DNA of 64,000 nucleotides from Nitrososphaeraceae archaeon (GCA_035250975.1 DATFEP010000063.1:1-64000), one strand, 5' to 3'; shown: positions 10,644 to 45,898, numbered from the stretch's first letter. Notes: generated by a model not told the origin, from the letters alone. Made by a program: numbers and translations.

Positions 10644-10678
10644 TTTATGTCAAATTTGTTTCACAAACCACTGGCCCG
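10644..10678 (+). repeat. Repeat type B, copy 1
   Basis: tttatgtcaaatttgtttcacaaaccactggcccg, followed by tctataagtgggttca, which resembles the type A core. Confidence 0.8.
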
Positions 10679-11140
10679 AATCTATAAGTGGGTTCATATA
10701 CTTGAATTGGATATTAGATGTTGAAAGAACAAGAGGAGGAAAATAGAATAAATGCTATTTCTAGATGATCGAATAATTTAATTTCAAATAAACGGGTCCA
10801 GTCATACGAGAAGAAGATTGACTAATTATCATCTCTTTTTTTAGTTAAAATTAAATATTTTAATTTGTCATAACAATTTAAAACTAATATTAATTTTCAA
10901 TTATGTGTCTTAGTCTTGGCTAGCCATTTACCTCTACAAGTGTTGCCAATTCTCCAAACGCTCCTGCAGTTCCCTTTTATAAAGGTTCAATATCCTGTTT
11001 AGATAGTGATTTTATCTTTCTCTTCTTTTTAATCAATTTATTACACAACACGTATAAAAAAAGAATAATACATTCATCAATTATATTTTAATAGATTCTA
11101 CTTTCGAATCTTAAATTAATTTTATAAGTATTATCTTTTC

Positions 11141-12061
11141 ATGTTACATCACTTTATTATTACCTTCATTACGTTGCTCTTAACAACTTTTTTTATAACC
11201 ACTCTAGTAGTAGAATCAGTTATAGCAGCACCAAGTACAATTGATATTCCAAGCAAAGAGAAAAAATCTACTACCAATGATGATGATGATTTGATTGTAA
11301 TATCAAATATTAATTTACAGAATATAGAAAAAACAGGATTTCTTAGAGTAGTTGGTTTTATAAATGCGCAAGAATTTTCCAAGGATATTTCTTTATCAAA
11401 CATAAGCGAATCAACAATGAAATTAACAGTTAAATTTAAAGCGGATAGAGAGAATGAGATAGTTAATGGTAATTCACCAGATGAATTCTTTATTTGTGCA
11501 TATCACGTTAAAAATCAACACGATCCAATACATCATTTTGATTGTAATGAAGGGGATATAAAATCTACTACTGGACCTACCAAGGCGAATCTCTTCAAGC
11601 CGTTATCGCAAGTATATCAAAAAAGTATAGACTACTATAATTTGTATGGAAAGACCAAGATAACCTCATTTTCTTTATTAAGGAATGATAGTCATAGTTC
11701 CAATGACAGTGTTAATCCTAATCCGAATATGAATACAACTAATCAAGAGAAGGTGAAGGTGAAGGTAATTGTACCGTTAGAAGACAAGAAAGACACAAAA
11801 AAAATCAAGGTGATGGCAATGCTAAAGGGCCAGATCCAATCCGAAGTGGTAGACGTTCAAAATGAATTCGATAAAATTGGTGGTTACACAATAGAAAGAG
11901 TATTTGTATTTGATAGAGATACAGATATAGGGAAAATGCAACTTGGAGATAGATTTCATGCATGTGTATCAGGAGAAGCGCTAAGACCGCCAGAAGGAAC
12001 AGAATGTGAAAAGAGAATAATAAAAGATCTGGATAAAGTCAATTCATTGGCGGCAAGATAA
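11141..12061 (+). CDS. hypothetical secreted protein with two similar Cys-pair domains
   Basis: Signal peptide; DEFFIC...DCNEG and DRFHAC...TECEK halves separated by an N/S-rich linker. Confidence 0.75.
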   Translation: MLHHFIITFITLLLTTFFITTLVVESVIAAPSTIDIPSKEKKSTTNDDDDLIVISNINLQNIEKTGFLRVVGFINAQEFSKDISLSNISESTMKLTVKFKADRENEIVNGNSPDEFFICAYHVKNQHDPIHHFDCNEGDIKSTTGPTKANLFKPLSQVYQKSIDYYNLYGKTKITSFSLLRNDSHSSNDSVNPNPNMNTTNQEKVKVKVIVPLEDKKDTKKIKVMAMLKGQIQSEVVDVQNEFDKIGGYTIERVFVFDRDTDIGKMQLGDRFHACVSGEALRPPEGTECEKRIIKDLDKVNSLAAR

Positions 12062-12289
12062 AATCAAAGTTATATTTGTTTTTTTTGTATTTTAATAAAA
12101 GTTATAAAAAAAATATTATAAGATGTATTTCATTAAAAAAAAGTCTTTTTTTATAAATTAATAATTATAATCAAAAACTTCATGCATATTTTAATTTAAT
12201 GAAGTATATGAAGATATAAATAATCCATCTAAATGATGTTAGCCAAATTTATCAAAAATAGAAAATACTCATAATGATTAATCATTAGA

Positions 12290-12785
12290 TGCTACCGTAA
12301 ATCCTTCCTGCTGGTAGAGCTTATCCAGTAAACCTTTTGCCCTTTCTTAAAAACTTCTTTTAATGCCGTGTTTAGATATACTCTTCTTAGTACCTCCTGC
12401 TTGAATACCCATTTGAAATAGTGTATAGATGAGAATCTGGTGGTATTGTACTCCGCTTTCTCCTATTATGATATGATTAACCTGTTTTGTTATCCAACGT
12501 CATGCTTGCTGATAAGAGTTGGTTTTTTATCCTGTATGCGATCTCTTATGATACATCTTTGCCACTTTTTGGTCTGTTTTTTAATCCATCTATACTTCTT
12601 CTCTGTATCTTTCTTTAACCAATCAGATATTCATCTCCGTCTTGTGTGAATATCTTTTGCTGCCTGTGTAGCAGTCTATTTTTTATATACTAAATTTAAA
12701 ATAACTAATATTCTTTTCCTTACATCAGTATCATGTTCTGGTCTGTATAGTTTTTCAACCTTGTTTTTGAAATTATACCTGTACT
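12290..12785 (-). mobile_element. Degraded IS630-family transposase (N-terminal HTH part)
   Basis: Minus-strand fragments SDWLK, IDGLKNRPKSG, ESGVQYH, KWVFKQEVLRRVYLNTA match the IS630 HTH region (KWGFKQKVPR type); stops and frameshifts; borders approximate. Confidence 0.75.
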
Positions 12786-12901
12786 AGTAGTAATAAATAA
12801 AATATAAGATGTTAATAGTAATATATAATACCTATTCTGAACTAATATGTATTCCCCAGATAGTAAAATAATGTCAGCATACTTATGCTAATTGGTATAG
12901 T

Positions 12902-13171
12902 TTATGTTTGATACATCATCTTCTTATCTTTAGTAGATCTTTCCCATATTGTAAATGGTGTAGCTACCTTCATCATGCTAGTTTTATTCATCTGTTTCAT
13001 CATTTTCTGCATCTGGATTGGGTCTGTCATCATAGGTCTCATCATAGGTGGTTGCTGTTCTCTCACCATCATTCCTGGATTTATCATACAGAGCATAATA
13101 CCCATCATAGTCTGATTTCCTATCATCATCGGTGCCAACATAATACATGGCATTGCCATACCTGGTTTCAT
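12902..13171 (-). CDS. Met-rich small protein or 5'-truncated remnant of one
   Basis: Very Met-rich 89-aa frame; segment MMTDPIQMQKMMKQMNKTSMM is homologous to 27558-27674. Confidence 0.5.
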   Translation of the reverse strand: MKPGMAMPCIMLAPMMIGNQTMMGIMLCMINPGMMVREQQPPMMRPMMTDPIQMQKMMKQMNKTSMMKVATPFTIWERSTKDKKMMYQT

Positions 13172-14306
13172 GTGGAGGTACTATTTCTCTTATTTCTATA
13201 TCATAGATATCAAATTTAAAATCATTTGACTTGATTATAACTATTGGAGAACCCCACGTAATTGCTTGACCATCTGTCTCCGCACCACATACTTTCATAG
13301 CATCACCCCAATTACCGTTATCTATTACTTCATGTACTTTTTTATAAGGTCCCTTGCCACCATTTTCTACATCCACCCAAGTTTCTAGTTTTACTGCGGT
13401 ATCATTTACATTATATATTATACCTTTGAAACCGACTATTTTATCATAAATGTTTCCCACAGTTAAGGTTTCGTTATAGCGTTCCCATTCATAATCAATA
13501 TGAAATTGTTCTTTTTTCATTCTTATGTTTCCATCATTAGATATATTGTTGTGGTAACTTGACCCACCACAAAAAAATTTGGGTTGGCCATCAAATTTTT
13601 TATATTCATTATCAAGTTGATTATGCGATATTGATCTGGTTACTATCGAAAGAGAATGCTGTTCTCCGTTAGAACGTGCTGAATCAAGGAGTTTAAAAAT
13701 CAATGTCACTTCTATATTTTTCCAATCACTTGGTTTATACCAATATCCTATCTCTTTTAGTTCAGAAAAATTCCAACTTTGAATTTTGCCATTGGACATA
13801 TTATTTAATTCTAATGGCTTATCAGGTAGTATTCCTGCATCCTTGGTATGAATATCTATCCTTGGTTTGCCAAAATCTATTCTCCAACTTCCATCAATAT
13901 TTTGCTGTGTAAAAATATTTTCTTTATCACTTTTATCTACTTGAACAAGATCATTTGGATTGGTGATATTCAATCTATATGTTTCTCCATTTGAAATAGT
14001 TTGGTAAATCTTTGGTATTGTTATTTTTTTTATAGGAAAGAAGGCTCTGTACGCAGGATCTAGTGCAGTAGAATATGATTCATTTTTATCCTTCTTTTTA
14101 TCCTTTGTTTCTTTATCTTTTTTATCTATTTTTTTATCGTCTTCGTTTTCTTCATCTTCTTCGTTATTATTTGGTTCGGCATAGATGGATAAAATAGATA
14201 GAGTATTATTAGAATGATTAAAATTAAAAATAATACTTATGACAATGATGTAAATTGCAATAAAAAATAACGAAGATATTGCAATTTCTCTACTTCCTAA
14301 TCTCAA
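12984..14306 (-). CDS. Membrane-anchored/secreted protein with a putative carbohydrate-active beta-sandwich domain
   Basis: N-terminal TM, E/D/K-rich linker, domain (DWKNIE..CGG..KKE..GFKGIIYN..CG..ITWGSP..IREIVPP) homologous to the C-terminal domain of 59310..63350. Confidence 0.8.
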   Translation of the reverse strand: MRLGSREIAISSLFFIAIYIIVISIIFNFNHSNNTLSILSIYAEPNNNEEDEENEDDKKIDKKDKETKDKKKDKNESYSTALDPAYRAFFPIKKITIPKIYQTISNGETYRLNITNPNDLVQVDKSDKENIFTQQNIDGSWRIDFGKPRIDIHTKDAGILPDKPLELNNMSNGKIQSWNFSELKEIGYWYKPSDWKNIEVTLIFKLLDSARSNGEQHSLSIVTRSISHNQLDNEYKKFDGQPKFFCGGSSYHNNISNDGNIRMKKEQFHIDYEWERYNETLTVGNIYDKIVGFKGIIYNVNDTAVKLETWVDVENGGKGPYKKVHEVIDNGNWGDAMKVCGAETDGQAITWGSPIVIIKSNDFKFDIYDIEIREIVPPHETRYGNAMYYVGTDDDRKSDYDGYYALYDKSRNDGERTATTYDETYDDRPNPDAENDETDE

Positions 14307-14907
14307 TTTTTAGATTATAATCGTTTATTTTATTTATTAACTACCTCAATTTATTATATAATTTTGTTATTATACTTTGTATTATTTTTACAGAAAATAA
14401 AATTTATATTTCATTTATTGCAGAAATACTAAAATGTATAAATATATTACTAATTTTTCGTTGTAGTTATTATATAACATCTTTACTAAATCCAAAAACT
14501 ATATTTTATCTGTTATTTTAATAAATAAGATGTCAATGTAATTGTTTTATATTAAGGTCTGTTGCATAACTCATTTCGATAGTCAATTTATTTTAATGTA
14601 ACCAATCCTTGTGTGTATAGTTATACTCAGAAACATACTGTATAAGGATACTTTTACAATCATTTTCTTATCGTGATCTCAAATATGATTAAAGTCGCAT
14701 ATTTATCAAAGATGCAGTGACAAAGAGACGGTTTGGTGGATATATTACATCTCGGCTGATAATAAAACAGAACAGGGATTTGACCTTCTGGTGTAGAGTA
14801 TGCAATGTGAGGTGGTTTTTATGGGATGGTATCTATAAAGGCTTAGAACATTTCTCAGTAGAGAAACTAGATAAAGTTTTTTAATTATATTTTTTAAGAT
14901 TAATAAA

Positions 14908-16272
14908 ATGCTTTTAGATTTTATACGGTGCGAATTTAAGCATCATTTTATTGTTGGTATTTTATTATTTCTTATTTGTTTGCAAACTTTAACTTTTCAT
15001 GATGTTTTTTCAACAAATACCAAACCTAAGTCGACAAATGAAGGTAGTGTTAGTAATAGTGTCAAGAAAAATTATATTAACATAAATGATGATCGTAATA
15101 ATAATACTTCTGTTAATCAAAATCAAACTATAAATGAACAAAAAATAAAAGTTGTTGCTGCAGGTGATTTTGGTTGTGGACCTGTAGCACAAAATAATAT
15201 CAAACAAATTGAATTACAAAAACCAGATATTTTCTTGGTATTGGGGGATTTATCATATGAACCAAGTTTGGATTGCTGGTACAATATGACTAAACTATTG
15301 GATTCAAAAATTAAAGTTGCTATAGGAAATCATGAGGATGAGGAAGAAAAAGCAAAAGGAGGTTCTAAAGAACTAAAAAATTCATTGTTAGAACATTATA
15401 ATTTAGAAAATTCATACTATTCATTCGATTATGGGAATGTACACTTTTTAGTATTAGATACACAATTAGAATTTTCACTTAATGTTTTTAAACCCGAGGA
15501 AAAAGAAGACGAAGAAGATACTGAAAGTAATAAAGATACTGAAAGTAATAAGAAACCAGGCGCAAAATATTATGTTACAACACTTAAAGATCTATTAGCC
15601 AAACATAGTATAAAGGCCGAAATACCTCCATATCATTTGGTAAATGATGAAGTGATTGTTGAAGATATCCCATTTGATACAGAACAATATATATTTGCTG
15701 TTAACGATCTAGAAAAGGCTAATAATAACTCCTCTATTGATTGGATTATAGTCATGTTACACAAGCCAATATATTCTTCACTTTCAAGTCACATTCAAGA
15801 GTATATTATGAGAGATAAATATCAACCTGTATTTGACAGATATGCAGTTGATATAGTATTACAAGGCCACAATCATATATATGATAGAACTTTACCTCTT
15901 CAATTTAATCCTAATAATATCAGCAAACCAATCGTAGATGAATCGAATAATACAAATAAATTTTCTAATCCAGAAGGATCAATTTTTTCTGTTATTGGTC
16001 TAGGAGGCAGGACCAGTCATATAATGTTAAATCAACCCAATTATGTAGTAAGTCAGCATAACGGATTTGGATTTCTTGGTATTGAGATTAATGGAAAACA
16101 GTTAGATGCAAAATATTATGATATAGGATACAAATGTAAAGAAGATAAGTTAAAAGAAAGTGATTTAGATGAAGGAGATTTTACTATATTTGAAATGCCA
16201 TCATGTAAAATGGATAAAAATATAAACTCTTTAGAAATAATTGACCATTATACCATATCTAAAGTAAAATAA
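14908..16272 (+). CDS. Secreted metallophosphoesterase (purple acid phosphatase-like)
   Basis: AAGDFG, LGDLSY, IGNHE, HKPIY, GHNHIY motifs; signal peptide; 18-bp tandem duplication (DTESNK x2) at 15517-15552. Confidence 0.9.
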   Translation: MLLDFIRCEFKHHFIVGILLFLICLQTLTFHDVFSTNTKPKSTNEGSVSNSVKKNYININDDRNNNTSVNQNQTINEQKIKVVAAGDFGCGPVAQNNIKQIELQKPDIFLVLGDLSYEPSLDCWYNMTKLLDSKIKVAIGNHEDEEEKAKGGSKELKNSLLEHYNLENSYYSFDYGNVHFLVLDTQLEFSLNVFKPEEKEDEEDTESNKDTESNKKPGAKYYVTTLKDLLAKHSIKAEIPPYHLVNDEVIVEDIPFDTEQYIFAVNDLEKANNNSSIDWIIVMLHKPIYSSLSSHIQEYIMRDKYQPVFDRYAVDIVLQGHNHIYDRTLPLQFNPNNISKPIVDESNNTNKFSNPEGSIFSVIGLGGRTSHIMLNQPNYVVSQHNGFGFLGIEINGKQLDAKYYDIGYKCKEDKLKESDLDEGDFTIFEMPSCKMDKNINSLEIIDHYTISKVK

Positions 16273-16831
16273 TTTTATCAAATAATTTTTATAATATTCT
16301 TGTTTTTTTATGATTTATATAAAAGATATTGAAGAATATATAGAAACACAATATTTAAAAATTATATTTGTGTAAGTATAATTTCTAGTCAATAAACTAT
16401 TGAATAATAGATTTTATTTAATAATTGAATTTATGTGTTATATAGTATATAGCATTTCTTTAAACACATAATGAAATTGAATCTAAATAATAGTATGGTA
16501 TCCTGCTATGCAAAAGTTATCTTAATGTTTGGTATATTATAAAGTAATGTTTATTACCTGCTTCTAATTTAATAACTTCGAGTGCTTTTCTAGAATCAAT
16601 ATCATAATGAAAATAAATGGTCCCATATTGCATAATTTGACAGTTCATTTATTTAAACTCATAGATGAAACAATCATTCAGATTGGTAATCAACATTTCT
16701 GGCTGTGGTTTTATATAGAACCAGTATACCATAACACAGCCTAAATTTTCATATTCATCAATTTTTTAAAAGTTTTTTTGCTTAGATAAATGAAATAAAA
16801 TTAAAATATTAGAGAATTATATTTTTAGGAT

Positions 16832-18364: not shown

Positions 18365-18614
18365 TCAACAAATTTTCAATTCATTATTTGTATATCTATG
18401 TTTGGGAAATTAAAATATTATAATTAACAAATATTTTGTTAAATTCCAACATTATAAACTTAAATTATGATATTTTTTTGATTATTATACAAAAATTGTA
18501 CTTATATTTTGTTATTAGTTCAAAAAACTTTCCATTAGCAATTGAGCGATAAAAACTTTATTTGGATTTTATTTACAATCAATGTATAAAGACTTTCTAA
18601 TATCTAGTCTGGGT

Positions 18615-18666
18615 AAAAATCAAATCCATTTTTTAGGTCAAATTTGTTTCACAAACCATTGACCCG
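18615..18666 (+). repeat. Repeat type B, copy 2
   Basis: aaaaatcaaatccattttttaggtcaaatttgtttcacaaaccattgacccg. Confidence 0.85.
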
Positions 18667-19057
18667 ATGAACTCTCAGTTCCAATCCTATTTTACTAGAA
18701 TTTATGAAGCAATAATATGATTTGAACTCGGAGTTAATATTTACCTTTTTATTATTTATTTGCTTTTTGTCCGAATTTATTTAAGCTATATTTAATGTCT
18801 TTATCTCTAATTTCATATTCTATAAAGTCAAAGAATTTTTTCAATCTTCTTTCAAAATATTTTCTAGTAATCTTTGTCTTAATTGCGTATTTGAACATTA
18901 GATAAGGAGAAAATTCTTTTTGTGTCCTTCATTTGCGATAATTTCTATGAAGCAATCGTGAATTGATATCCCTTAGATATGATAAAAAATGGGTCTAAAT
19001 AAAGACTCAGCTTAGTAATGGGCAAGTCGAATGAGATCTTTGACATCGAATTAGTAA

Positions 19058-25667: not shown

Positions 25668-25885
25668 AAGGTTCTTGGATTTGAGAATACATTAGTTAAA
25701 AAAGATAATCATCCTTTACGATTAGTTCCTCATTTAGAAAAAGAATTTCCTGAAATTGATTTCAAGGAATTTGACTCTGCTGAAGACATTCAAAATGAGG
25801 GATCTGTAATTTATATCATAGATTCGGTCGAAAATATTGAAAGATGACTATTATTTATAATATTGAGCAAATAGATGTCAGAAGA
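25668..25885 (+). pseudogene. Remnant of a small archaeal protein with a hydrogenase-maturation-protease-like N-terminal pattern
   Basis: KVLGFENTLVKKDNHPLRLVPHLEKEFPEIDFKEFD...IYIIDSVENIER*; no in-frame start; continues in a shifted frame. Confidence 0.5.
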
Positions 25886-26152
25886 GATTTGATGAGAATA
25901 CGCGATTTGATTAACTTTGCTGTTATCAAAGAGATTAATTCATTACTTAATTTATCAAATTTAACATAGATTCGTCACCAGTAAGCAATACTTTTTTATC
26001 AAAATATAATACTTGCAAGTTAAGTGCATCTATAGCAAGCACATTGTATAAGATATGCAAATTTCAATATTGATGAGGTAGAATTGAGGAGATAATAAAA
26101 TAAAAAATAAATAATAATAGTAATATAATAATACTATGTTATAATAGTAAAA

Positions 26153-27149
26153 ATGACTTTTTAAAAATCAACTGTTCATGTTGTCTTGATTACTATCATG
26201 ACTTTAATTATGACAACATGTGTAGGATCAACTTTCAGAATGTAAATGCTCCATATTATAGTAATGATTATGATGATGAGGATGATGTCATTAAATTAGA
26301 GCCAATTAGGCATATGATGGATCGCAGGCATCACCATATGAAGATGCACAACAACAGCAGGAAAGTTCTATAAGTAATTTTTCTATAACAAGAAGTATTA
26401 AAACAATAAATGCTGTGGATGGTGTAGACATAATGTATGCATCGATAGTTATAGGAGCAATATCCCGTACAACTGATGCTTATCAACCAAATCCTATATA
26501 TCTTAAAGAAGGTCAGATGGTAATATGGACTAACATGATTATAATCTACATACTGTAACGCAAAGGTCTTTATCTGTAGGCACAGATACTGCTTTAATAT
26601 TTGATTCTGGCATACTTTTAAGAGGTCCAGTATTTTTTGCACTTATTTGATAAAGAAGGAACTTACAATTACTATTGTACTATTCATCCCTGGATGGTCG
26701 GTCAAGTGATTGTAGTAAGCAATTCAACCGTTACCGCAACCAATACCAATAAACAATCAACATCGATATCAATGTCAGAAAGAGGAGATTTGGCCATGGG
26801 TTTTAATCAAAGCAAAATATTACATCAGTTTAAATCTGCTCCTACAGGAGGTCAAATCTCGATAAGTGCATTGAATAATAACGATATAGACACAATAAAA
26901 CAAATCAAAAATCATATTTCTATTATTCAGAAGGGATTCTCGTCAGGAAACTTTACAAAGCCTTTTTATATACATACACAAGATGTTCCAGGTACTAAAC
27001 TAATGACTGAAAAAAAGGACTTTATAAAATATAGTATAAAGGATATAAATAATGGTGCAATATTAATGCTTGAAACTAAAGATAAAGAATTACTTGATAC
27101 AATACATCAGTTTATGGCATTTCAAGATGCTGAACATCTTGGGCATTAA
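26153..27149 (+). pseudogene. Frameshifted secreted cupredoxin (plastocyanin/azurin-like) fused to a His-containing domain of unknown function
   Basis: AYQPNPI..KEGQMVIWTN / LHTVT..FDSG / F.KEGTYNYYCTIHPWMVGQVIV lie in different frames (shifts near 26535 and 26627); ORF 26637..27149 keeps the C..H..M copper ligands and the ERGDLAMGF..FQDAEH domain; 5' border approximate. Confidence 0.75.
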
Positions 27150-27465
27150 TTATAAATCAGCTGATATTCTTATCTAAATAATACTAAGATTAGTGTGTAA
27201 ATACAGAAACAAAATTGCATTTCTTATATTATTTGCTTAATAATTTGTTGTTAATTCATAATGTTAATAAAATGATACATATTCTACCGGCTATAATTTA
27301 CACGAGCTACAAAGGAATCTAATACAAATCGGTCATAGCCTGCTATTCCTGTTGAATCTATCTTTGTCTACGATAATATACATTTTTTTTATATTATGTT
27401 TATTTTGTCAATTTAATGAATATCACTTTAAATAACAAGTATAGCAGATACTTAATTCTTTTTTT

Positions 27466-27674
27466 ATGGTATCTGTATTTAAGTGCAATAGTTTTTTCTT
27501 GCTACTTACAAAGACCCACAATCGGTATTTGCAAATCCTCAAGTTATGAAAAACTAAATGAATAACACGATGGGAACACAGAACCAGCATACGATGATGG
27601 ACCAAATCCAGTTGCAGAAACTGATGAAGCAGATGAATAAAACTGGCATGATGACGCGAGTGACTAACAAATAA
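27466..27674 (+). pseudogene. Disrupted secreted Met-rich protein
   Basis: Signal-like ..ATYKDPQSVFANPQVMKN* then MNNTMGTQNQHTMMDQIQLQKLMKQMNKTGMMTRVTNK* (27558-27674); homologous to 12902..13171. Confidence 0.55.
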
Positions 27675-27892
27675 ACTTCTCATTCTTTCATTTTTTACCA
27701 GTATTAAATAGTTAGATTTTTCATTTTTCGACCTGTGACATTTTTAATAAAAATTTTGAAACTTTAGACTATACTTATTTATCATTAAAGCTTTAAAGAA
27801 TCAAATTGGATATTTTATATTGTTAGGTTAGATTAGATTTTAAAAATATACGAGCCTACCATGTTCCATTTAACGAATATCTCATGATTATA

Positions 27893-28942
27893 TTATTTGT
27901 TCTTATATGAAAGATAATAATAATTTTGAAAGTCATGTGGTAATGTTTTTACTTCAACATGAGAAAATCCTGCTTCTTTTAACATGGAGACTGCTTTTTC
28001 TTTTCCCCACATAGCACCCAACCCAGCACCATTTTGGGACAATGACACACTCATGCAGTGAAGACAAGAAATTGTATAAAGAAATGTTCCCAGTGGATGT
28101 GAAATATTATCTTTCAATGGAGTTGACGCAAGAATATCCTGCATAAGAAAAACTCCTTTATCAGAAAGAGACTGATAAATATTTTTTAAGACCAGGTCAG
28201 GTCTGGGCTGATCGTGTATTGCATCAAATGCTGAAATTAAATCAAATTTATCTTTAAATGCTAAATCCATAACGTCCTGAACTTTAAAAAATACATTTGA
28301 ATTCTTCATATATTTTGCTTCTTTTGTAGCTTCATCAATAGCCTCTTTAGAGAGATCGTATCCGTAAAATATACTTCTTGGAAAATGCTTTGCCATCATA
28401 TTAACTGCTTTTCCCTTACCACATCCAATATCGAGAACTTTAATTCCCTGTTTAAGATCAAAATTGAGATTAGGAACTAAGGGTAAAATATAATCAATCA
28501 GACCTACCACTACTGTTTGATAGCTTTCCTCTGCCATTACTTCATCAAATCGTTTGTATGAAGAATATGGAACACCTCCACCTTTTGCAAAACATTCAAC
28601 AATTTCATCTTCTACTTGAGCTAATATGGGGATCCACTGTATAGATGCTGCAAAATTATATATGTTATTTTCTCTAGTTAAATATTGAGCTTTTTCTTTT
28701 GAAAGCCAGAATTTGTTATTCACTGGATCATATTCGATGATCTTTCCAGTTACCATTCCTCCAAGCCATTCCCTAATATATCTCTGATTTAGCTTTGACT
28801 TTGATGCAATCTCTTCAATTGTTGAAGGTGGAAGTGTAGATAATACATCAAATAACTTTGTCCTATGGCCGATAGATAACATAAGAGATAGAGAACCTTT
28901 GTTAATCACATCAATTAGATAGTTGGAGAAATCATTATCCAT
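27893..28942 (-). CDS. Class I SAM-dependent methyltransferase with N-terminal winged helix (Rv2258c-like)
   Basis: SIGHRTKLFD..RYIREWL, VLDIGCGKG, AFDAIHD, SCLHCMSVSL, GLGAMWG. Confidence 0.9.
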   Translation of the reverse strand: MDNDFSNYLIDVINKGSLSLMLSIGHRTKLFDVLSTLPPSTIEEIASKSKLNQRYIREWLGGMVTGKIIEYDPVNNKFWLSKEKAQYLTRENNIYNFAASIQWIPILAQVEDEIVECFAKGGGVPYSSYKRFDEVMAEESYQTVVVGLIDYILPLVPNLNFDLKQGIKVLDIGCGKGKAVNMMAKHFPRSIFYGYDLSKEAIDEATKEAKYMKNSNVFFKVQDVMDLAFKDKFDLISAFDAIHDQPRPDLVLKNIYQSLSDKGVFLMQDILASTPLKDNISHPLGTFLYTISCLHCMSVSLSQNGAGLGAMWGKEKAVSMLKEAGFSHVEVKTLPHDFQNYYYLSYKNK

Positions 28943-29840
28943 ATTAAATAATCCACTTATTATTCACACTTTTATTTATTTCGAAGTCTTATTGGATTTT
29001 AACTAACTAACAATTTGTCTAATATTACCAAAATCAATATGTCAATGAAAACAAAACCACTAGTTGAAATGATAAATGAATAAACTTAAAAATCATTATA
29101 CATAAAATAATTTGTATCGTTATATTATGACTGACTAATACAGTCAACGATTTCCTAGAAGACATTTTATAATAAGATATTATTAAGGAGAAGATGTGTG
29201 TTTAGCGGTCAGTATTTTGAATTCTCTGGGGCAATTAGTGAGGTAGAGATTCTTGAAGAATTAAAAGAAAACAGGAAAGATGCCACTACTTAACGTTAGA
29301 ATCTATTGAAGAAAGAAAAGGCAGATAAACAAAATAAAAATCTTTCATAATAGAACAACTCTCAAATCATTGAAGTTTAAATTTAATTACTTCAGCTTAA
29401 AAACCTTGATCAGAGATATAATAAGTATATTAACGAAATATTATCGATTTTCTATTGAAAGCTAAAGTTATATGTTACTAAAAAATCCAGATGGAAGCCG
29501 AATAACATTATCAAGAAATTACCCAAATTGCTTAGGCATCTTCAATTTAATAATGGGAGAAGCCAAAAACTCTTGGAGAAAATTCAAAAATATATCGAAT
29601 AAATTCAAATTTGATTAACAATTAAATAGAAAATAAAACAATAACAAATTTGAAAACCGCTGGTAGATTGTTATGTTCTTTATTTCTACTCATTTTGACA
29701 ATCTTTTCTATTGATAAAAGTTTGTGTATAGAATAACAATTAATTAATAAAGAAATTTTCTGTTTTAATTAAATATCACAACTCCTTAATACAAGATTGT
29801 GTATTAATAAAGTGATGCAAATAATAAGTGAATTTTTATT

Positions 29841-30404
29841 TTGAGCGACAAGTGGACATTGGAAAAACAACATAAAGCATTATTGTTTTCTGCAAGTATT
29901 GCGGTTAAATCATTTCTTATGGCAACAATATCTAGTAACATCTTTTGTAAAAGTATAGATCCTAATATTCTATTTCTCCATTGTTCTATGAATATTGTAT
30001 ATGTAGGATTAAGTACAGGCGCTATAATAGTGATGGGAACGATATTTGGATATTACATCATACGCCTGAAAACCTTTGATAATATTTTTGCCAACATGAT
30101 GAAATCTGATTATATTATTACTACAATGTATTTTAGTATGGGATTTCTTGCTCCAGCAACAATGTCTACTATTATACTGATATGGTTATTTGGAATTTGG
30201 ATTCTTGGTATGCTTTTAGCGCCATTTAATAAAGAGAAAACAATTCTAAAAAAAGTAACTCAATATGGGTCATTAGTAGCAGTAGGTATTTTATTAGTTG
30301 CCTCTTTAATACCACAATTACATGAATATGGACAACCTTTTGCTATTGGCGCTATTATAAGCAGTCTTATGAGTATTTTTGGAGCAGGTAGAGTACAGTC
30401 TTAA
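29841..30404 (+). CDS. hypothetical membrane protein
   Basis: 187-aa ORF with about 6 hydrophobic segments. Confidence 0.65.
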   Translation: MSDKWTLEKQHKALLFSASIAVKSFLMATISSNIFCKSIDPNILFLHCSMNIVYVGLSTGAIIVMGTIFGYYIIRLKTFDNIFANMMKSDYIITTMYFSMGFLAPATMSTIILIWLFGIWILGMLLAPFNKEKTILKKVTQYGSLVAVGILLVASLIPQLHEYGQPFAIGAIISSLMSIFGAGRVQS

Positions 30405-30438
30405 AAGTTTCACAAGAGCTAAACATAAAAATCTCGAA

Positions 30439-30473
30439 TTTAGGTCAAATGTGGTTCACAAATCAATGACTCC
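30439..30473 (+). repeat. Repeat type B, copy 3
   Basis: tttaggtcaaatgtggttcacaaatcaatgactcc. Confidence 0.8.
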
Positions 30474-30699
30474 ATTGCTATGTTAGTTCTCTAATTAGTT
30501 TTACAAGGAAAAAATTTGATCAAAATTAAATTCTTATAGATAATTCACTTTACTATACTTTTAAGTTTCCTAGATATGTAATTCATTGATTATGAATTCG
30601 GGTAGTTATTGAAATTTTACTACAAAAAATCTAAATTTTGTGATTATGAGGAAAAATTTAATCGAGAAAAATATCTAAATTATTTCAAGTTGTTAGCTT

Positions 30700-30930: not shown

Positions 30931-30986
30931 TTAGTTTTCAATTATTTATAAGTATCATTTTATATAAAATTTTAAGTTTTCAATTG

Positions 30987-31028
30987 AAATTCCTTTTAGG
31001 TCAAATGTGGTTCGCAAACTATTGGCCC
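30987..31028 (+). repeat. Repeat type B, copy 4
   Basis: aaattccttttaggtcaaatgtggttcgcaaactattggccc. Confidence 0.8.
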
Positions 31029-31087
31029 AATTAAACCCTGGCTTCTAATCCTTAGAGATAAATTGGAAAGTAATAATGATATTTTAA

Positions 31088-34798: not shown

Positions 34799-34835
34799 AA
34801 TATATTGAACAATTCACTTCTACATATTTTTAATA

Positions 34836-35435: not shown

Positions 35436-35439
35436 ATCT

Positions 35440-37723: not shown

Positions 37724-37859
37724 ATGAATAAATTATCAAAAAAAAAGAACAATAACCAAAACAAAAATTGAAAATATTCGCAATCCCTTTTTGCACGACT
37801 CATTATTCCATATAATTAGATTACTTGTTACTGTCATACTGTACAGTTAACTGTGAAAG

Positions 37860-38460
37860 AAATACAGTCATTCTCTGGTAAAAGAGAAAAGATATTGAAT
37901 TTGTTTTTATAGATTACTGGGATCTCGGATTAGAAAAGATAAAGAAGATAAAGAAGAAATTAGAAGGTCGGTATATCCATATTCATTTTCAGGACATTTG
38001 GGTTCATGAGAGCATACATATTTCACTTATCCAACAGACATAAAGAAAGTGTATTCATACCATTAATACAATTCAGTATCATGATTTCCAGATTAAAGCA
38101 GAACTTGCAGAAAAATAAAATGACTCGACATCAATATTTATTTGGATGCCACCAGATCTAATTTAGATGATAACTGTTTTGTAATAGTAATTGATTCTAC
38201 TGTTATGAAGGCGGATACAGGGGAGAATGCATACGTCACTAATGCAATGTTAAGAAAGGACATCTAAAGATACATGTAACAGTTGACATCAAAAGAAAGA
38301 GAATCCTATCATTAAAAGTAACTAGTAAACAAATACATGACGGAAAGATATTACTAAAAGCCATAAATGATATTACTATAAAGAATAACAAGATAGTAGA
38401 TACTGGTATTATGGGTAGCTCGCATTAAGATAACAAGAGGAATAGTTTTAAACATTTATC
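37860..38460 (+). mobile_element. IS5-family (IS903 group) transposase remnant, N-terminal two thirds
   Basis: Fragments FIDYWD, MRAY.FHL, VIVIDST, KKGHLKIHVTVDIKRKRILSLKVTSKQIHDGKILL match the IS903-group DDE transposase; many stops and frameshifts; borders approximate. Confidence 0.8.
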
Positions 38461-39207: not shown

Positions 39208-39234
39208 ATAAAATATTTGTATTTACATAACCGT

Positions 39235-39264
39235 AAATCCGCTTTTTAGGCCAAATTTGGTTTA
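39235..39264 (+). repeat. Repeat type B, copy 5 (3'-truncated)
   Basis: aaatccgctttttaggccaaatttggttta; nearly identical to the reverse complement of 45861-45890. Confidence 0.8.
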
Positions 39265-39457
39265 GAAGTAGCTAATACGAATACAAAAATGTCTTAAATC
39301 CATTGATCTTATCATACCAATTTGAAAATCAAAAATAAGGATAAGATAAAAAATAGTAATTATTTTATATATTTATCTTTATAAATATTACAAGGCTGAA
39401 TATACTACGTCTATTATTGTTGGACTGGATGATTTAACGAAAGCTAGAATAGTACAT

Positions 39458-40053: not shown

Positions 40054-40401
40054 TTATCTAGGAGTATAAAATATTATTATTGATCCCAAAACAGCGACAA
40101 ATGAACCAATTATCTCGTACCTATCAGGTTTCTTTTTTTCCACCGTCATACCCCATAAAATAGACGAGATGATAAAAATTCCTCCATATGCTGCATATAC
40201 TCTCCCAAATTCAGCAGGTTGAAATGTCGGAACGATGCCGTATAGAAACATAATAATACCTCCAACTATACCTAGCATATATGTTTTCTTTTTACGTAAC
40301 CATATCCATACTAGATATCCTCCTCCTATCTCAGCAATTGCTGCAATAATAAAAAGTATGAAGGGAACTATGATGGAGGAAATTACTATGACTTGGTCCA
40401 A
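40054..40401 (-). CDS. ynfA: YnfA (UPF0060) family SMR-like membrane protein, copy 2
   Basis: AEIGGGYLVW.WLR, PTFQP..FGRVYAAYGG, PDRYEIIG. Confidence 0.9.
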   Translation of the reverse strand: MDQVIVISSIIVPFILFIIAAIAEIGGGYLVWIWLRKKKTYMLGIVGGIIMFLYGIVPTFQPAEFGRVYAAYGGIFIISSILWGMTVEKKKPDRYEIIGSFVAVLGSIIIFYTPR

Positions 40402-40751
40402 ACTTGCTCACCTTTCCTAGGTGCATAATATATTATTATTACACCTACCAATGCAATAGAAGCACCTATTATATCGTACATATCTGGAGCTATTCCTTGA
40501 AAGAGCCATCCCCAAAGTAATGACATAACTATGAAGATTCCCCCATATGCTGCATAGATTCTATGAAAAAATGATGGTTGAAAAGTAGGAACAACTGCAT
40601 ACAAAAAAAGAATAAAGCCGCCTAAGGCTCCAAGTATCCAACTCATGTCATCTCTCAACCAAATCCAAATAAGATATCCTCCTCCTATCTCAAAAAGTCC
40701 AGCAAGAAAAAAGAAAAGTAAAGTTATCAAAATTTTATTAAATTTAATCAC
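40386..40751 (-). CDS. ynfA: YnfA (UPF0060) family SMR-like membrane protein, copy 1
   Basis: FEIGGGYLIW.WLR, PTFQP.FF.RIYAAYGG, PDMYDIIG; overlaps copy 2 by 16 bp. Confidence 0.9.
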   Translation of the reverse strand: MIKFNKILITLLFFFLAGLFEIGGGYLIWIWLRDDMSWILGALGGFILFLYAVVPTFQPSFFHRIYAAYGGIFIVMSLLWGWLFQGIAPDMYDIIGASIALVGVIIIYYAPRKGEQVWTKS

Positions 40752-41100: not shown

Positions 41101-41109
41101 AAAATAATT

Positions 41110-42234
41110 ATGATGTTGTCGTCTAGTCAGCAGGAACGGCAGAAACAACAAGAAGAAGAGATACAAGCAGGGCTAGACTTCCTACTTTCCCATTTCTCCA
41201 GTCCACTGTTCCCCAGAACAATATCAACACAGAAAACCGTGGATAGCCAGATACCAGTAAGCAGTAGGGAAGAGGCATTAAGTTATTACAGAAAATCAGA
41301 ATTCAAGGATTGCAAGATTAACGCCTTTTACTATTCCAAGTTGGAAGATACCACAATAGGGGGTTTATTCTGGCATCCAGATTTAATATTCATTGATTTA
41401 GATTTACAGGATTTTAAGAGTGAAAAGGCATTACAGTTTGCACTTTCCAAGACTTTAAAGAATATTGCCGATAAATTGGGTAGTAATTCTGCAGTTCCTA
41501 CCGTACTTCACAGCGGTGGAGGTTACCACGTCATACAACCGGTAGACTGTCCGGTACCATTAGAGAGTATCCAGGATGTAAAAGAGTTCAGGGAGATTCC
41601 AAACCCTTCAGAAATATTTTTGAGGTTTGCCAAAGAGTTTCTATCGAATGGAAAGGCAGACAAGAAGAATAATCCTTCCTTCAAATCCTGCATGTTAAGG
41701 ATTCCAGGTTCCATTAATTCCAGACGTAACGGCAAGAAGGTTAGGATTATTCAACGTTGGAACGGATACAGGCCACGAATAACGAAAGAGTTGATAATAG
41801 AGTTCCAGGGCTGGTTGATACAGAAGAAGATAGACAAAAGGATAGAACAGGAAAAAATAGACAGGGAGAGACAAGTAAGAAGGAAGGAATTATCTGCAGG
41901 TTACAATATCAATTATTATTACGAGTGGATAGAAAAATTATTAGATACAGGAATAGAAGACTGCAGGAAAACATGTGTAGGTTTGATTCTAGCACCCTAT
42001 CTTATTCATGTGAAGGGATTATCGTTTGAGATTTCCAGACAAATAATCAAAAACTGGTTACAGAAATGTGACTCGCTTAGGAAGCTAGATAGAGGTTTTG
42101 ATTCCAGAATAAGAGACGCATTGAGAAGTTCACAAAGGAACAAGATAGGACCAATGAGTAGGGAGAAGATAAAAGTCGATTCCACGTATAATACATTATT
42201 AAATTTGCTGGTTAGCAAGGGGGTTTTGGATTAA
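41110..42234 (+). CDS. Archaeo-eukaryotic primase (AEP) catalytic domain fused to a PriX-like C-terminal domain; mobile-element replication protein
   Basis: Motif I FIDLD, motif II SGGGYH, RIPGSINS; C-terminal YEWIEKLL.TGIED.RK....LILAPYLI.VKGLS...II..WL.KC typical of PriX. Confidence 0.8.
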   Translation: MMLSSSQQERQKQQEEEIQAGLDFLLSHFSSPLFPRTISTQKTVDSQIPVSSREEALSYYRKSEFKDCKINAFYYSKLEDTTIGGLFWHPDLIFIDLDLQDFKSEKALQFALSKTLKNIADKLGSNSAVPTVLHSGGGYHVIQPVDCPVPLESIQDVKEFREIPNPSEIFLRFAKEFLSNGKADKKNNPSFKSCMLRIPGSINSRRNGKKVRIIQRWNGYRPRITKELIIEFQGWLIQKKIDKRIEQEKIDRERQVRRKELSAGYNINYYYEWIEKLLDTGIEDCRKTCVGLILAPYLIHVKGLSFEISRQIIKNWLQKCDSLRKLDRGFDSRIRDALRSSQRNKIGPMSREKIKVDSTYNTLLNLLVSKGVLD

Positions 42235-42254
42235 GAAGATTAACGACAATTACA

Positions 42255-42404: not shown

Positions 42405-42454
42405 AAGTTGAGATTATAAAAACGCGAAAATCAAACCGTATTGGATTCAATGAT

Positions 42455-43081
42455 GGGATCCCATCAACAATTACAAATGCAGGTGCACAATTGTAGGGAG
42501 ACCAGTATGGATATGATGATAACCATCCAAAAAAGAATTCTCATACAGATGTCCAGAAAATAAAGTGTGTAAACAGTAACATGAATTTCAACCGTATAGA
42601 TATTACCCAGATACCTCAAGACGGTCCTGGCGTAGCAGCAGCAAATGAAGGAGGAGGAACAGCAGAAGCAGCAAATACACAAAATGGTAACGGACTTGCA
42701 GATGGAATAAACTTCGAGAAGAACCTAGTAAATATATGTGTAAATGTAAATCATAATGAACATATTAAAGTTAGTGCTCCAGAAGAACAACCATGTGAAG
42801 AATGTTTTTCAATTTTAAGTAAGCAAGTTATCGGAAACGTATTGAGTACTATTGACTCTATTCTTAACAATTTAGAAATAGATGCACAAATAAATACACT
42901 TGCCGATCTTTGTGAATTTCTGGAGACATCCACAGCAATATCATCCAAAGTAAAATGGCAAATCCTAAACACACCACTAGGTAGTGAATCATTACCTCGT
43001 GGGACCATTGATAATATACTACTATGCTTGGAAGATTTGGGAATAATTTGTAGAGCCAGCGTAATTCAGGTAGAAACCTAA
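42455..43081 (+). pseudogene. Secreted Cys-containing protein with disrupted 5' part (ORF 42581..43081 is the remainder)
   Basis: Same frame extends upstream as GDQYGYDDNHPKKNSHTDVQKIKCVNSN, preceded by an in-frame TAG after ..ITNAGAQL; signal peptide eroded. Confidence 0.55.
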
Positions 43082-43111
43082 CCCTCTTTTTTCTTTTTTG
43101 AGACTTTAACC

Positions 43112-43528
43112 AATTAATCTATTACTCTAGCGATATAGCGTATTTTAAACTGTTATGTTATTGTTGACTCTTCTGGTCCTACCTCTTCTGTCTTCTTATA
43201 TTAAGATATAACCATAACGCAATCAATGATAAGCCAATTACTATGAAGATAAGAGATATTCTTGTGCCAGCCCCTATTGTGATCAAAAATATACCAAATG
43301 CTATAATGACAAGACCATAAATTAATATCCAAAGTGGAGGATGACGATTATTAGTATTCAATTTATCAATTAGCCATTTTTAAATCATGATATATTTTTG
43401 TTCCTAGTACTACTGCTATGGAATAAGAGTAAGAGTTTGAGTTTCTATCTATCTATCTATTAAAATATAATTATTGAATATTAAAAAAATAAATAAATAA
43501 ATAAATTAATCTATTACTCTAGTGATAT
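43112..43528 (+). repeat. 25-bp direct repeat pair (43112-43136, 43504-43528) bracketing a small membrane-protein gene
   Basis: aattaatctattactctagCgatat / aattaatctattactctagTgatat, 24/25 identical. Confidence 0.8.
43179..43361 (-). CDS. 60-aa two-TM membrane protein
   Basis: Two hydrophobic helices, basic C-terminus RRQKR. Confidence 0.6.
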   Translation of the reverse strand: MNTNNRHPPLWILIYGLVIIAFGIFLITIGAGTRISLIFIVIGLSLIALWLYLNIRRQKR

Positions 43529-43948
43529 CTAGGATGTAAAATCAAAATTTTCACTAATCCCGGAATGGAAAGTGGTTGACAGATGTGCACTTTCTTCGTT
43601 CCGGAATGGGACGCGAGTCACCAATTACGAAGTTGGTATGTGTAATTATGACAAACTGGTTTATTTTTATTTATAATAGAAAATATTTAGAGGTATATTG
43701 AACTAATACACTATCCGAAAAATAATTAGATTAACTATACTCTTTTAGGACCAAATATATGATCTATTTAGATTTTTCAATCGTGTCTAGTGTTTCAGAA
43801 ATCGTCATTACTATGCTTTTTATCTTTTATTGAGTCAGGAAATTATGTTATATTTAAGAAATGGTTAATAAATTTTGAACTATATAAAAAAAGACAAAAA
43901 CAGCAGATTTACAAAACAATAAAATGTTTATTGATACAAAATTGATTA

Positions 43949-44833
43949 TTGAAATCGAACTTTAAACTTTCCATCTTTTCTTTTGCTATCTCACTTTTTA
44001 TGCTGCTTTCTATTACAAATTATGTTTACGGATTTAATATTATTACGGTAGGGGACGTTGATTGTAAATCTACTGCAAAAGAATTAGTAAACGATATTGT
44101 AAAAAAAGCTGCGGATTTTTATTTATGGTTAGGAGATCTTTCATATACAGAAACCCCTGAAGGTGATGAATGTTTTCTAGATATGTTAAAAAACAAAGAA
44201 ATACTAGATAAATCTTATATTGTTCTAGGAAATCATGACCTTTTGAATGAAAAAGATTATCTTAACACTTTTAATCTAACCAAGCCATATTATTCTTTAG
44301 ATTTTAATTATAAAATAAAGGATTATAAAAATAATTTAAATATACATTTAATAGTCATTAATTCAGAAGAAGAGATTTTGAAGAATACCCAACAATACGA
44401 GTGGATTGAAAATGATCTTGATAAAGTATGGAATAACGGAAAGGAGCTTTATAATTATACATTGGTTGCCACTCATAGACCATTATATGGCGCAAAGGAT
44501 GTCAAACAAGAATTGGGGGAAGTTAAATTATCCTCGTTTCAGTCTCTTCATCCTTTATTCCAATCCAGGGGTGTTGATCTTGTCCTTTCAGGTCATCATC
44601 ACGTCTATTATCGCATGGTTCCTTTGGATGGAATACAATACATAACCATAGGTACTGGCGGTGCACCCCAACATCATTTTTTTACAGCTGATGAAAAACC
44701 GAAGAATATTTTCATTAGATTTGCAGGAATTCATGGATTTTTAAATATTGATTTTTCCGACAAAATTTATGGAACTTTTGTTGATATACCAGATAACAAC
44801 GTATTGGACTCCTTCTCTATTCAATCTAATTGA
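43949..44833 (+). CDS. Secreted metallophosphoesterase
   Basis: VGDVD, LGDLSY, LGNHD, THRPLY, SGHHHVY, GTGG; signal peptide. Confidence 0.9.
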   Translation: MKSNFKLSIFSFAISLFMLLSITNYVYGFNIITVGDVDCKSTAKELVNDIVKKAADFYLWLGDLSYTETPEGDECFLDMLKNKEILDKSYIVLGNHDLLNEKDYLNTFNLTKPYYSLDFNYKIKDYKNNLNIHLIVINSEEEILKNTQQYEWIENDLDKVWNNGKELYNYTLVATHRPLYGAKDVKQELGEVKLSSFQSLHPLFQSRGVDLVLSGHHHVYYRMVPLDGIQYITIGTGGAPQHHFFTADEKPKNIFIRFAGIHGFLNIDFSDKIYGTFVDIPDNNVLDSFSIQSN

Positions 44834-44993
44834 GAAATCATTAATTTGCAACTCTTTTGATTGGTAATTGTTCAGTAAAATCCTTCCAAACGATATTTTT
44901 TCATATTTAGTTATATTTTTATTGTGTATTGTAATATTATATCATAATTGTAAGCAAACATTATATAATGTAATACACATTACATCATGTAAA

Positions 44994-45527
44994 ATGATTA
45001 ATAAGGTGAAAGAATCATGGAATTTTAAAAAGATCTTTGAAGATCTTAATAGAGAATTTGCGACAGCAGAAAATATGTTGGACTAAATCTTTATAACAAC
45101 AGGAGAAAGTAAGACGTCTGTGAAACGAAATGTTCCATATTTTTATGGCTATCAAATTATTGTAGGTCCAGATGGGAAACCTCACATCAGTGAATTTGGA
45201 AACGTAAAACCAAGTAAAAAAGCATTAGTAGAAAGTGATATAAGAGAACCTTTAGTTGATGCAATGTTTAATGAAAAAGATAGTACATATGTTTTAACTG
45301 CTGAAATGCCAGGAGTAACAAAAGAAGATATTAAGGTAAAAATCTCAGAAAAGACTGTAGTCATAAGTGCTGAACGTGCAGATAAAAAATACTATAGTGA
45401 ATTTCCATTGGACCTTGAATTAAATGCAAACTCTGCAAAGGTAAGATACATAAACGGGATATTGGAGATTAAGATAAAAACAAAGGAGCGACCCAAACCA
45501 AAGTCAACAGGCGTTAAAGTTGAATAA
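44994..45527 (+). pseudogene. Archaeal small heat shock protein Hsp20 with an in-frame TAA at 45084 (or restart at GTG 45120)
   Basis: PYFYGYQI.VGPDGKP.I.EFGNV, REPLVD, AEMPGV.KEDI, Y.NGILEI; N-terminal MINK..FKKIFEDLNREF is in the same frame. Confidence 0.8.
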
Positions 45528-45845
45528 TTCTTTTTTTAAGTTTAAGAATAAAGGACTAAAAATAACAAGGTAAATCTTCGAGAGTTCTTTGGGTAAAATT
45601 ATTCAAAAGAGTAACAAATCAATAGTTAATAACAGTGGTATAGCGTGATCACTAGTAGCAGCCGATTAATATCCTAGATGATGAAACAATATGAGAATTT
45701 TTTTAACTTTATTTTAGTTTTAAACTAATTAGCATAGTTTAACTGTCTTGATTCATTGCGGTAATCCTTGGAATATTTCATATTATTTTCTTAAATTCTC
45801 TAATATTCGATGTTAAAATCCGTTAACTGTGATCTTATATTATCT

Positions 45846-45898
45846 GGGTTCAGTACTCTGTAAACCAAATTTGACCTAAAAAGCGGATTTTGATTTTT
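45846..45898 (-). repeat. Repeat type B, copy 6 (inverted)
   Basis: Reverse complement aaaaatcaaaatccgctttttaggtcaaatttggtttacagagtactgaaccc. Confidence 0.85.

Follow-up and report, generated by a model that had tools for sequence, protein, structure and literature searches.

An intergenic repeat bearing a tRNA end in a Nitrososphaeraceae genome, very probably a junction of integrative elements accreted at a tRNA gene

How a short intergenic repeat came to be scattered among unrelated genes is the question raised by a stretch of 64,000 nucleotides from a Nitrososphaeraceae archaeon (GCA_035250975.1, DATFEP010000063.1:1-64000), which was analysed at its full length and is called the window here, and in which the repeat occurs between positions 10,644 and 45,898. 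A sequence-only reading of the window had proposed that the copies are half-sites, a constant arm plus a crossover core, of an integron-like system that keeps adding gene cassettes. The present analysis indicates that the repeat is very probably an attR/attP-type junction left by the tandem accretion and decay of integrative elements whose target is a tRNA gene, at its 3' end. The repeat has a right half that matches this tRNA end in sequence, copies are linked to integrase genes, a co-oriented array of copies is anchored at the tRNA gene in a relative, the junctions are modular, and gene order breaks at the core.

The window repeat is called the B repeat (B copies 1–6, in window order), its left half the B arm, which is followed by the core; intA and intB are two tyrosine integrase families, and A' is the promoter-like segment 3' of the core that leads to intA. 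The genome carrying the window (a 2.49-Mb assembly of 91 contigs) is G000, other G numbers are relatives, C denotes a contig and L a locus. Synteny among close relatives was compared between G000 and both G016 and G019, of which G016 is nearly closed and holds the tRNA gene and the array on its contig C8.

Six copies of the repeat in the window

The B copies in the window are as follows, with the nhmmer E value of each.

10623..10704, plus strand: copy 1, arm, core ACCACTGGCCCGA (10667-10679) and type-1 right arm, which is the TATA-containing A' (E 6.5e-17)
18611..18692, plus strand: copy 2, arm, core and type-3 right arm (E 1.2e-13)
30418..30497, plus strand: copy 3, arm, degenerate core CAATGACTCCA and type-2-like right arm (E 5.2e-12)
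30974..31055, plus strand: copy 4, arm, core CTATTGGCCCA and type-3-like right arm (E 9.6e-13; flank typing)
39224..39305, plus strand: copy 5, arm alone (E 1.1e-10)
45820..45901, minus strand: copy 6, inverted, arm and variant core ACTGAACCCA at 45845-45854 (E 1.7e-11)

The six copies are confirmed as real and far above chance, and all those reported by the sequence-only reading were found again by repeat search, alignment and profile. The repeat search of the window grouped 10643, 18631, 30438 and 30994 as family D7 and joined 39235 and 45846 to the repeat through the inverted pairs I2, I3 and I14, with copies 5 and 6 being 97% complementary over 30 nt (I14), and a six-way alignment of the window copies contained 22 invariant columns. 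A 21-nt central pattern was observed four times in the window against 0 expected from 100 shuffles. The repeat profile, built from 11 copies and searched with nhmmer against the whole G000 assembly, returned 11 matches with E <= 5e-10, six of them on the window contig, a pair on each of C32 and C45 and a single one on C18, and the next best match had E = 0.028. The 36-nt consensus first given for this evidently real repeat is too strict, returning 18622-18657 alone at up to three mismatches.

As originally described, all six copies lie between open reading frames (ORFs; 80 aa or more), five of them on the plus strand and one on the minus strand, and the later conserved block is free of copies, with no profile match in the window past 46 kb and the block beginning near 52.7 kb. 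The core ACTGGYCCCA, allowing at most one mismatch, was counted nine times in the window against 2.18 +/- 1.47 expected, a number reached in none of 100 shuffles; four of these nine matches (3798, 43000, 51676 and 63243) are within ORFs, far from the repeats, and may be chance. The proposed terminal core is accordingly enriched, although copy 5 at 39235 is without a recognisable one.

The tRNA end, the linked integrases and the array

In well-kept copies, the right half of the B repeat (GTTTCACATCCCACTGGCCCCA) is identical at 20 of 22 positions to the 3' end of a tRNA gene of G000 (GGTTCAAATCCCACTGGCCCCA, C23:6313-6334), and the final 15 bases of the tRNA end are identical in most copies of the genus, those of the window being more decayed. 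The right half is therefore a copy of the final ~15–22 bases of an apparently intron-containing tRNA gene, the tRNA end at G015:C232 entering the same A' segment as the repeat core does, and the left half is a constant arm. The target gene lies at G000:C23:6313-6408(-), on another contig than the window, and was called a tRNA by ARAGORN; the Rfam tRNA model, with a gathering score of 29, gave it 30.2 bits, and the Rfam alignment places a 28-nt insertion in the D region and gives an anticodon loop of CUGGGGC, from which the target is tentatively taken to be tRNA-Pro(GGG). Reading the variable hairpin as the anticodon arm, with suppressor-like anticodons, was dropped, since Rfam puts the insertion in the D region and the loop at CUGGGGC. 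No tRNA was found within the window by ARAGORN, and Rfam at its gathering thresholds gave no match there. The variant core ACTGAACCCA was also considered as the end of another tRNA and dropped, with none of its five occurrences in the assembly at a tRNA.

Some further traits of the target tRNA were recorded. Its D-region insertion (G000:C23:6313-6408(-), L055, L069-L072) is ~22–28 nt long and varies in sequence among species, keeps a helix of 3–4 bp (CTTC/GAAG, CTC/GAG), has borders that repeat AGGAT/AGGTAT, and resembles a non-canonical intron with a bulge-helix-like fold, ARAGORN being unable to name the anticodon. The A' arm near intA (L040, L044, L047, L055 and L056) repeats the 5' half of the T-arm of the target tRNA of its subfamily, such as GGGAATTCATATAC beside a tRNA with GGGAATTCAAATCC, and GTGGGTTCATATAC beside GTGGGTTCAAATCC; this repeated stretch may bind the integrase as a second site, or may have been left by T-loop crossovers. 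A C/A difference at the T-loop position of B copies was also seen, TCAAAT occurring in 2 of 4 type-5 flanks versus 1 of 41 others, a small and biased sample from which no claim about attR is made.

The B-core-A' unit continues into the N-terminus of an ORF beginning MPLKLSTT in 11 of 22 aligned copies (10 of the 11 from relatives; the 22 were drawn from L001-L020), the order after the core being the TATA-containing A' segment, an AAGGAG-like motif, ATG and the ORF. Copy 1 retains the beginning of this arrangement, and its reported run into a segment like the type A repeat, the tRNA-like repeat of the region, was borne out (tctataagtgggttca).

10681..10790, plus strand: A' promoter-like segment, AAGAGGAGG and the ATG of a deleted intA gene, of which a 9-codon ORF is left; the same segment leads into the MPLKLSTT... 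ORF in the alignment of relatives

The copy on C18 of G000 is followed by a shortened ORF of 186 aa, and most repeat-linked versions at the loci of relatives are only 9–139 aa long, with full-length open frames of 444–493 aa present elsewhere in the genus. At G015:C232 the tRNA gene, not the B arm, precedes an intact 445-aa ORF, and the tRNA 3' end GTGGGTTCAAATCCCACTGACCCCA directly joins A'; at G003:C297 the same tRNA is followed by the second integrase family, intB. Intact ORFs of 445 aa and of 448–451 aa stand beside the att site in relatives, after the tRNA end or a B-like arm; the window itself has only remnants and no tRNA. Other intA subfamilies are located behind other tRNAs, and their non-tRNA left arms bear the matching core. 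Beside these, tRNA-Val(GAC) followed by an intB-family gene was noted at G000:C2:4-739, and tRNA-Val(UAC) followed by an integrase of at least 390 aa, related to a gene on C57, at G000:C9:39292-40601.

The statement that no recombinase gene is in the window holds for intact genes, but a remnant of 58 codons from an intB N-terminus is present at 18755-18928(-), within the following feature, a segment of which adjoins 24-nt copies of the tRNA end in G016 and G019.

18755..19030, minus strand: inverted attL-type remnant, type-4 right arm, degenerate core and intB N-terminal pseudogene (aa 6-62; tblastn 40% identity, E 1e-7)

From its sequence and predicted fold, the linked ORF is assigned to the tyrosine recombinases as a protein of ~450 aa with the R..YxxR..Y signature, which is the pattern of pNOB8-type integrases (excerpts of PMC8371274). 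R174, K202, Y290, R293, H294, W315 and Y325 are invariant in the family alignment. Pfam Phage_integrase (PF00589) passes on the homologue L028 at 32.4 bits (29% identity by tblastn); the 445-aa intA, the 263-aa intB and the 186-aa fragment on C18 were all without a Pfam match, and the family member L056 fell under the cut-off. Against PDB sequences, phmmer with intA gave nothing and a profile search gave XerA alone (E = 0.047). All 18 Foldseek PDB matches with E <= 0.001 to an AlphaFold model of the linked protein (pLDDT, the predicted local distance difference test, 74.5) are tyrosine recombinases, including XerH, XerA, IntI (2a3v), Cre and lambda Int. The likeness to pNOB8-type integrases covers the signature (Y290, R293) and a gene that stays whole on integration with the att site outside the ORF; unlike those in the same excerpts of PMC8371274, the proteins here are distant in sequence, the B-linked protein is not reached by Pfam, and intA proteins have a C-terminal zinc-ribbon-like stretch, CPRC..CSKC, plus a long helix. 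The integrase is not of the split-gene SSV type, because the core lies upstream of the start codon, ending ~95 nt before that of intA at G015:C232, and the ORF is cut at varied lengths (9–186 aa) and not at one point.

On G016:C8 the tRNA gene lies at 91504-91604(+), and the profile found 14 full and two core-only copies in the next 82 kb, all on the plus strand and none on the minus strand, with integrase remnants at five places along the array. Units between cores contain 1–13 ORFs of 100 aa or more in G016 and 0–6 in the window, on both strands. The window is approximately collinear with G016:C8:303-356 kb on the same strand, and the plus-strand copies of the window would therefore have the orientation of the tRNA if the G016 arrangement holds; DNA 2.9–3.5 kb downstream of the C23 tRNA also matches the G016 array. 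The flank following the tRNA varies by genome: G015 and G003 have integrases there, G000/G019 and G016/G012 have other arms, and a clean empty tRNA site with full element boundaries was not recovered among G000, G003, G012, G015, G016 and G019. A 161-nt query around copy 1 had matches in 23 of 24 further genomes of the genus and in none of the 16 that represented other families of the order; many genomes of the genus showed 10–20 or more matches, often several per contig and on one strand. The scan of genome and relatives that had been suggested found the motif in both.

Modular junctions and breaks of synteny

Four left partners of the core were observed, namely the tRNA itself, the B arm, the C arm and the type A repeat, along with at least five discrete right partners (types 1–5): type 1 is A' with intA, type 2 the upstream region of intB, type 4 the segment after the tRNA in G016/G012, and type 5 the flank after the tRNA in G000 and G019. 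Recombination among att sites yields just such combinations of arms around a single short core. The C arm, a second arm family with the same core that the sequence-only reading had overlooked, is likewise found upstream of intA genes in L038/L039. The core is indeed common to the B and type A repeats, as had been claimed, because both carry parts of the same tRNA 3' end. The window features concerned are these.

16575..16626, plus strand: C arm and core AATGGTCCCA, where the block 10615-16635 ends on its right (core scan; inverted pair I4, its partner being 5321-5372)
5321..5372, minus strand: C arm, core CACGGGCCACA and type-3-like right arm (inverted pair I4; core scan)
3186..3233, minus strand: type A repeat 1, core end ACTGGTCCCA, TATA spacer and T-arm-like GGGTTCAAATCTCAC (92% identical to 4940-4987, D18)
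4940..4987, minus strand: type A repeat 2 (D18 pair; genome-wide copies)
3163..3172, minus strand: isolated variant core ACTGAACCCA, an exact flank switch point between G000 and G016/G019 (core scan; synteny)

By its sequence the type A repeat, of which there are about 12 copies genome-wide in G000, can be read as core end, TATA spacer and T-arm, and at G016:155725 it goes on as the complete tRNA end, followed by an intB-like gene. On G000:C45 (L022), a type A copy (70-116) and a B copy (1803-1878) flank an insertion sequence (IS) with a DDE_Tnp_1 transposase (374-1343). The same type A copy terminates both C18 and C45, and therefore the assembly breaks at these repeats.

Gene order changes exactly at the core in two cases. 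Between the orthologous copies 2 of G000 and G019:C72, the arm and left flank are the same and the right flank changes from type 3 to type 2 at the core, and at the variant core 3163-3172 the flank switches between G000 and G016/G019. These breaks, at copy 2 and beside type A repeat 1, support the earlier description of the sites as a constant arm plus crossover core. More generally, the blocks common to G016 or G019 have borders at 10615, 16635, 18662, 39231/39235, 45829 and 45859: the left edge of copy 1 (10615) starts a 6-kb block shared with G019:C38, which ends at 16635; blocks in both relatives start at 39231/39235 at copy 5; G016 is without 45830-46226, which holds copy 6; and around type A repeat 1, collinearity with G016/G019 stops at 3223/3241 and resumes with blocks that start at 3160. 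Copy 3 lies within a block collinear with G016:C8:331228-335363, and G019 is without window 25675-30579, a gap ending ~105 nt past the core of copy 3. Copies 5 and 6, inverted relative to each other, bound a 6.6-kb segment that is flipped in G019, where one junction falls inside the arm (copy 6 arm with copy 5 right flank) and a deletion is found at the other end. The idea that the sites explain the patchwork of the region is borne out by these att junctions and breaks at cores.

Assembled contigs from public reads (four runs from four studies, one of which may be the source sample) were compared with the window. In all four runs, contigs cease to match at either border of the second type A copy (4949, 4984); at 19022, one run has a loose end reading an intact core, and another joins 19022 to type A copy 2 via 14 letters that complete the tRNA end. 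These contigs show variant junctions in near-identical strains, not proof of excision. Two further joints, 3231>16661 and 10677>3190, have sides of 27–41 letters located at repeats and were not used as evidence.

The origin of the repeat and its alternatives

If the repeat arose by accretion and decay of integrative elements, each element would have carried a tyrosine integrase gene of ~450 aa, with the promoter-like A' segment right after the crossover core, and integration would have recombined attP (B arm, core and A'-int) with the tRNA end, giving attL (tRNA-A'-int) on one side and attR (B arm with a copy of the final 15–22 tRNA bases) on the far side. Later elements would re-use the tRNA or an older core, so that units would pile up head to tail, all in the orientation of the tRNA; integrase genes would decay, cargo genes would stay between solo B-core scars, and core-to-core recombination would keep shuffling, deleting and inverting units. 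We infer the direction of these events and the exact position of the crossover, as well as that the later rearrangements were caused by integrases and not by short-homology recombination. Within att, the arm may be a binding site for the integrase or for a helper protein. Such a history would account for the mosaic region, its stress, transport and redox genes being cargo of integrative elements at a single tRNA gene, and the B arm with its core would provide a sequence tag for island junctions across this genus of soil ammonia oxidisers; it also brings to light a divergent integrase family barely detected by Pfam.

Several observations weigh against this history. None of the six window copies is beside an intact integrase, the G000 assembly has the B-linked intA subfamily as fragments only, and an integrase remnant is present in only 5 of the 14 units of the G016 array. 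B arms occur upstream of both intA and intB units, so that either integrase may be the one that uses the arm. The tRNA of G000 is on another contig, its link to the window being the synteny with G016, where the two are ~210 kb apart. Copies 3 and 4 are without a break relative to G016, and the synteny edges at copies 1 and 5 coincide with the left border of the arm, not with the core. The expectation that synteny breaks fall at the core, realised at copy 2 and at 3163-3172, fails at the right edge of the SQR block (4755) and at the site between the neighbours X and Y (20371/20519), where G016 and G019 carry an MFS unit, both of these being without a core. No circular or excised form was found in the public assembled contigs of the four runs.

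The same units can be viewed differently, as cassettes of an integron-like or CIME-like platform (CIMEs being cis-mobilizable elements), in which integrase-less units ending in B-core are excised and re-inserted in trans and the repeat is a cassette-borne recombination site, not the scar of decayed self-sufficient elements. That is judged unlikely, with observations on both sides. The one-gene MFS unit of G019 has a B-core on both sides, its left edge meets the core exactly in G016 and G019, and its position relative to X and Y differs among G000, G016 and G019; 9 of the 14 G016 array units are without an integrase remnant and 6 of 14 are a single ORF of 100 aa or more; and the SQR and PNPOx-LLM blocks adjoin in the window and are far apart in G016 and G019. 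However, the X|Y site of G000 is empty and without a core, so the move was not a simple core-by-core event. In the 18 more distant genomes with the MFS gene, no B copy adjoins it. Co-oriented short recombination sites between unrelated genes, a tyrosine recombinase and IntI (2a3v) among the fold matches are likenesses to integrons, but the integron-like system that had been proposed did not survive: no conserved single-strand hairpin or covariation is seen, there is no resident integrase and no fixed intI-attI-Pc platform, the integrase remnants being scattered along the G016 array, the sites copy a tRNA end, and the genes of a unit, 1–13 in number, lie on both strands, unlike integron cassettes, which mostly have one promoterless ORF in a single orientation. 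When the six copies were folded as single-stranded DNA, the z-scores ranged from -1.44 to +0.78, unlike an attC-type palindrome.

The G019 MFS unit has, as a CIME does, an att site on both sides and no integrase inside (B-core, MFS, B-core), and its mobility is putative. The original paper on CIMEs is reportedly Pavlovic 2004. Decay after accretion accounts equally well for units without an integrase, as for bacterial CIMEs (excerpts of PMC5704250). It is likewise rather unlikely that the tRNA-Pro locus is an archaeal gene-capture platform, at which integrase-less units of one to a few genes would form circles and be re-inserted at any core by trans-acting pNOB8-type integrases; if true, it would be functionally parallel to integron cassettes or CIMEs, and the islands so built would reach ~260 kb. 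With an array of 14 or more junctions in the relative and with small integrase-less units that are reshuffled, the locus is suited to asking whether archaeal integrases mobilise cassettes in trans.

Other origins for the repeat are far less probable. A structured RNA or tRNA-mimic module, transcribed and with GGGACCA pairing with TGGCCCC, would fit the 7-nt imperfect inverted match of these motifs that brackets many copies, but it is very improbable: variants with AAATCC instead of GGGACC keep the same core, no compensatory change is seen in 45 aligned copies, the folds of the six window copies differ over the above range of z-scores with no shared structure, and the window is without an Rfam match. 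Equally poor are the prospects of a transcription-factor operator or promoter element, with the 8-bp palindrome CAAATTTG of the arm at a fixed distance from a TATA box. The best-kept stretch of the repeat, TAGGTCAAATTTGTTTCAC, is conserved at 90% or more per column in the 45 aligned copies, and the type-1 flank has the TATA-like TTCTATAAG right after the core; against the fixed TATA spacing named as refuting the half-site idea, however, five unrelated right flanks follow the arm and a TATA-like motif is present in only some of them, downstream genes are on either strand or hundreds of bases off, and an operator would not predict the links to tRNA end, integrase and breakpoints. Least credible of all is a miniature inverted-repeat transposable element (MITE) or IS end, for which the short, dispersed, intergenic and AT-rich character of the copies and the IS with a DDE transposase between A and B copies on C45 would speak; terminal inverted repeats do not go past seven imperfect bases, and those are missing in the AAATCC variant, the copies are co-oriented with the tRNA gene, the repeat terminates on one side in a tRNA 3' end, the window copies have no transposase beside them, and the flank alignments contain no target-site duplication, in line with the MITE-unlike character first noted.

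Accretion at a tRNA gene is filed here as a known kind of process, because tRNA integration, accretion, CIMEs and module exchange are already in the literature (excerpts of PMC6563490, PMC5704250 and PMC8371274). A survey of Thaumarchaeota describes elements integrated in the 3' parts of tRNA genes, with att sites that are short and may be used again (excerpts of PMC6563490), and its elements resemble those proposed here in the tyrosine recombinase, the 3'-distal tRNA target, including intron-containing tRNAs, the cargo of accessory genes and the length of the identity segments (median 17 bp there versus about 15–22 bp here). Unlike the single or paired elements of these excerpts, the relative has, within 82 kb, 14 or more co-oriented junctions anchored at one tRNA, most integrases are decayed, and one arm is common to junctions into two integrase families. 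The main text of that survey (PMC6563490) does not mention Nitrosocosmicus, and its Table S2 of att sites may list the tRNA target; full-text searches for such an array in Nitrososphaeraceae yielded just one paper, which mentions integrase-flanked islands in Nitrosocosmicus.

Bacterial islands of integrative and conjugative or integrative and mobilizable elements combine accretion with att-flanked, integrase-less CIMEs (excerpts of PMC5704250). Site-specific integration, decay to integrase-less att units, new integration at a remaining att, a composite island and complex excision patterns are common to these and to the present array, whereas the CIMEs of the same excerpts are bacterial and conjugative and usually number two or three units, and those here are archaeal and many more, with putative mobility. 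Inversions and module exchange between integrated elements are noted in an archaeal review (excerpts of PMC8371274). The principle of tandem accretion at a tRNA gene is already established, and what is notable here is the number of junctions and the question of cassette mobilisation.

Several other features of the window were recorded. Three other multi-copy families lie at 12273-12900, 37786-38458 (just left of copy 5) and 42460-42818, each with about 15 to 25 or more copies in G016 at ~70–80% identity, and are probably IS-like or paralogous gene fragments. A 65-nt inverted repeat pairs 12970-13034 with 27590-27654 (88% complementary, I1), and both G016 and G019 have further copies of 12967-13166. 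The 6.6-kb segment that separates copies 5 and 6 includes, at 41110-42234, an ORF of 374 aa that has a C-terminal PriX (primase X) domain and may be the replication gene of a former element. Two tandem YnfA/UPF0060 genes are found at 40054-40751, with an overlap of 16 nt and repeated DNA between them (D11, D17). Finally, a 1346-aa ORF at 59310-63350, with laminin-G, metallophosphatase and proline-rich tandem repeats (D2, D5, D6), is part of the conserved block and unrelated to the repeat.

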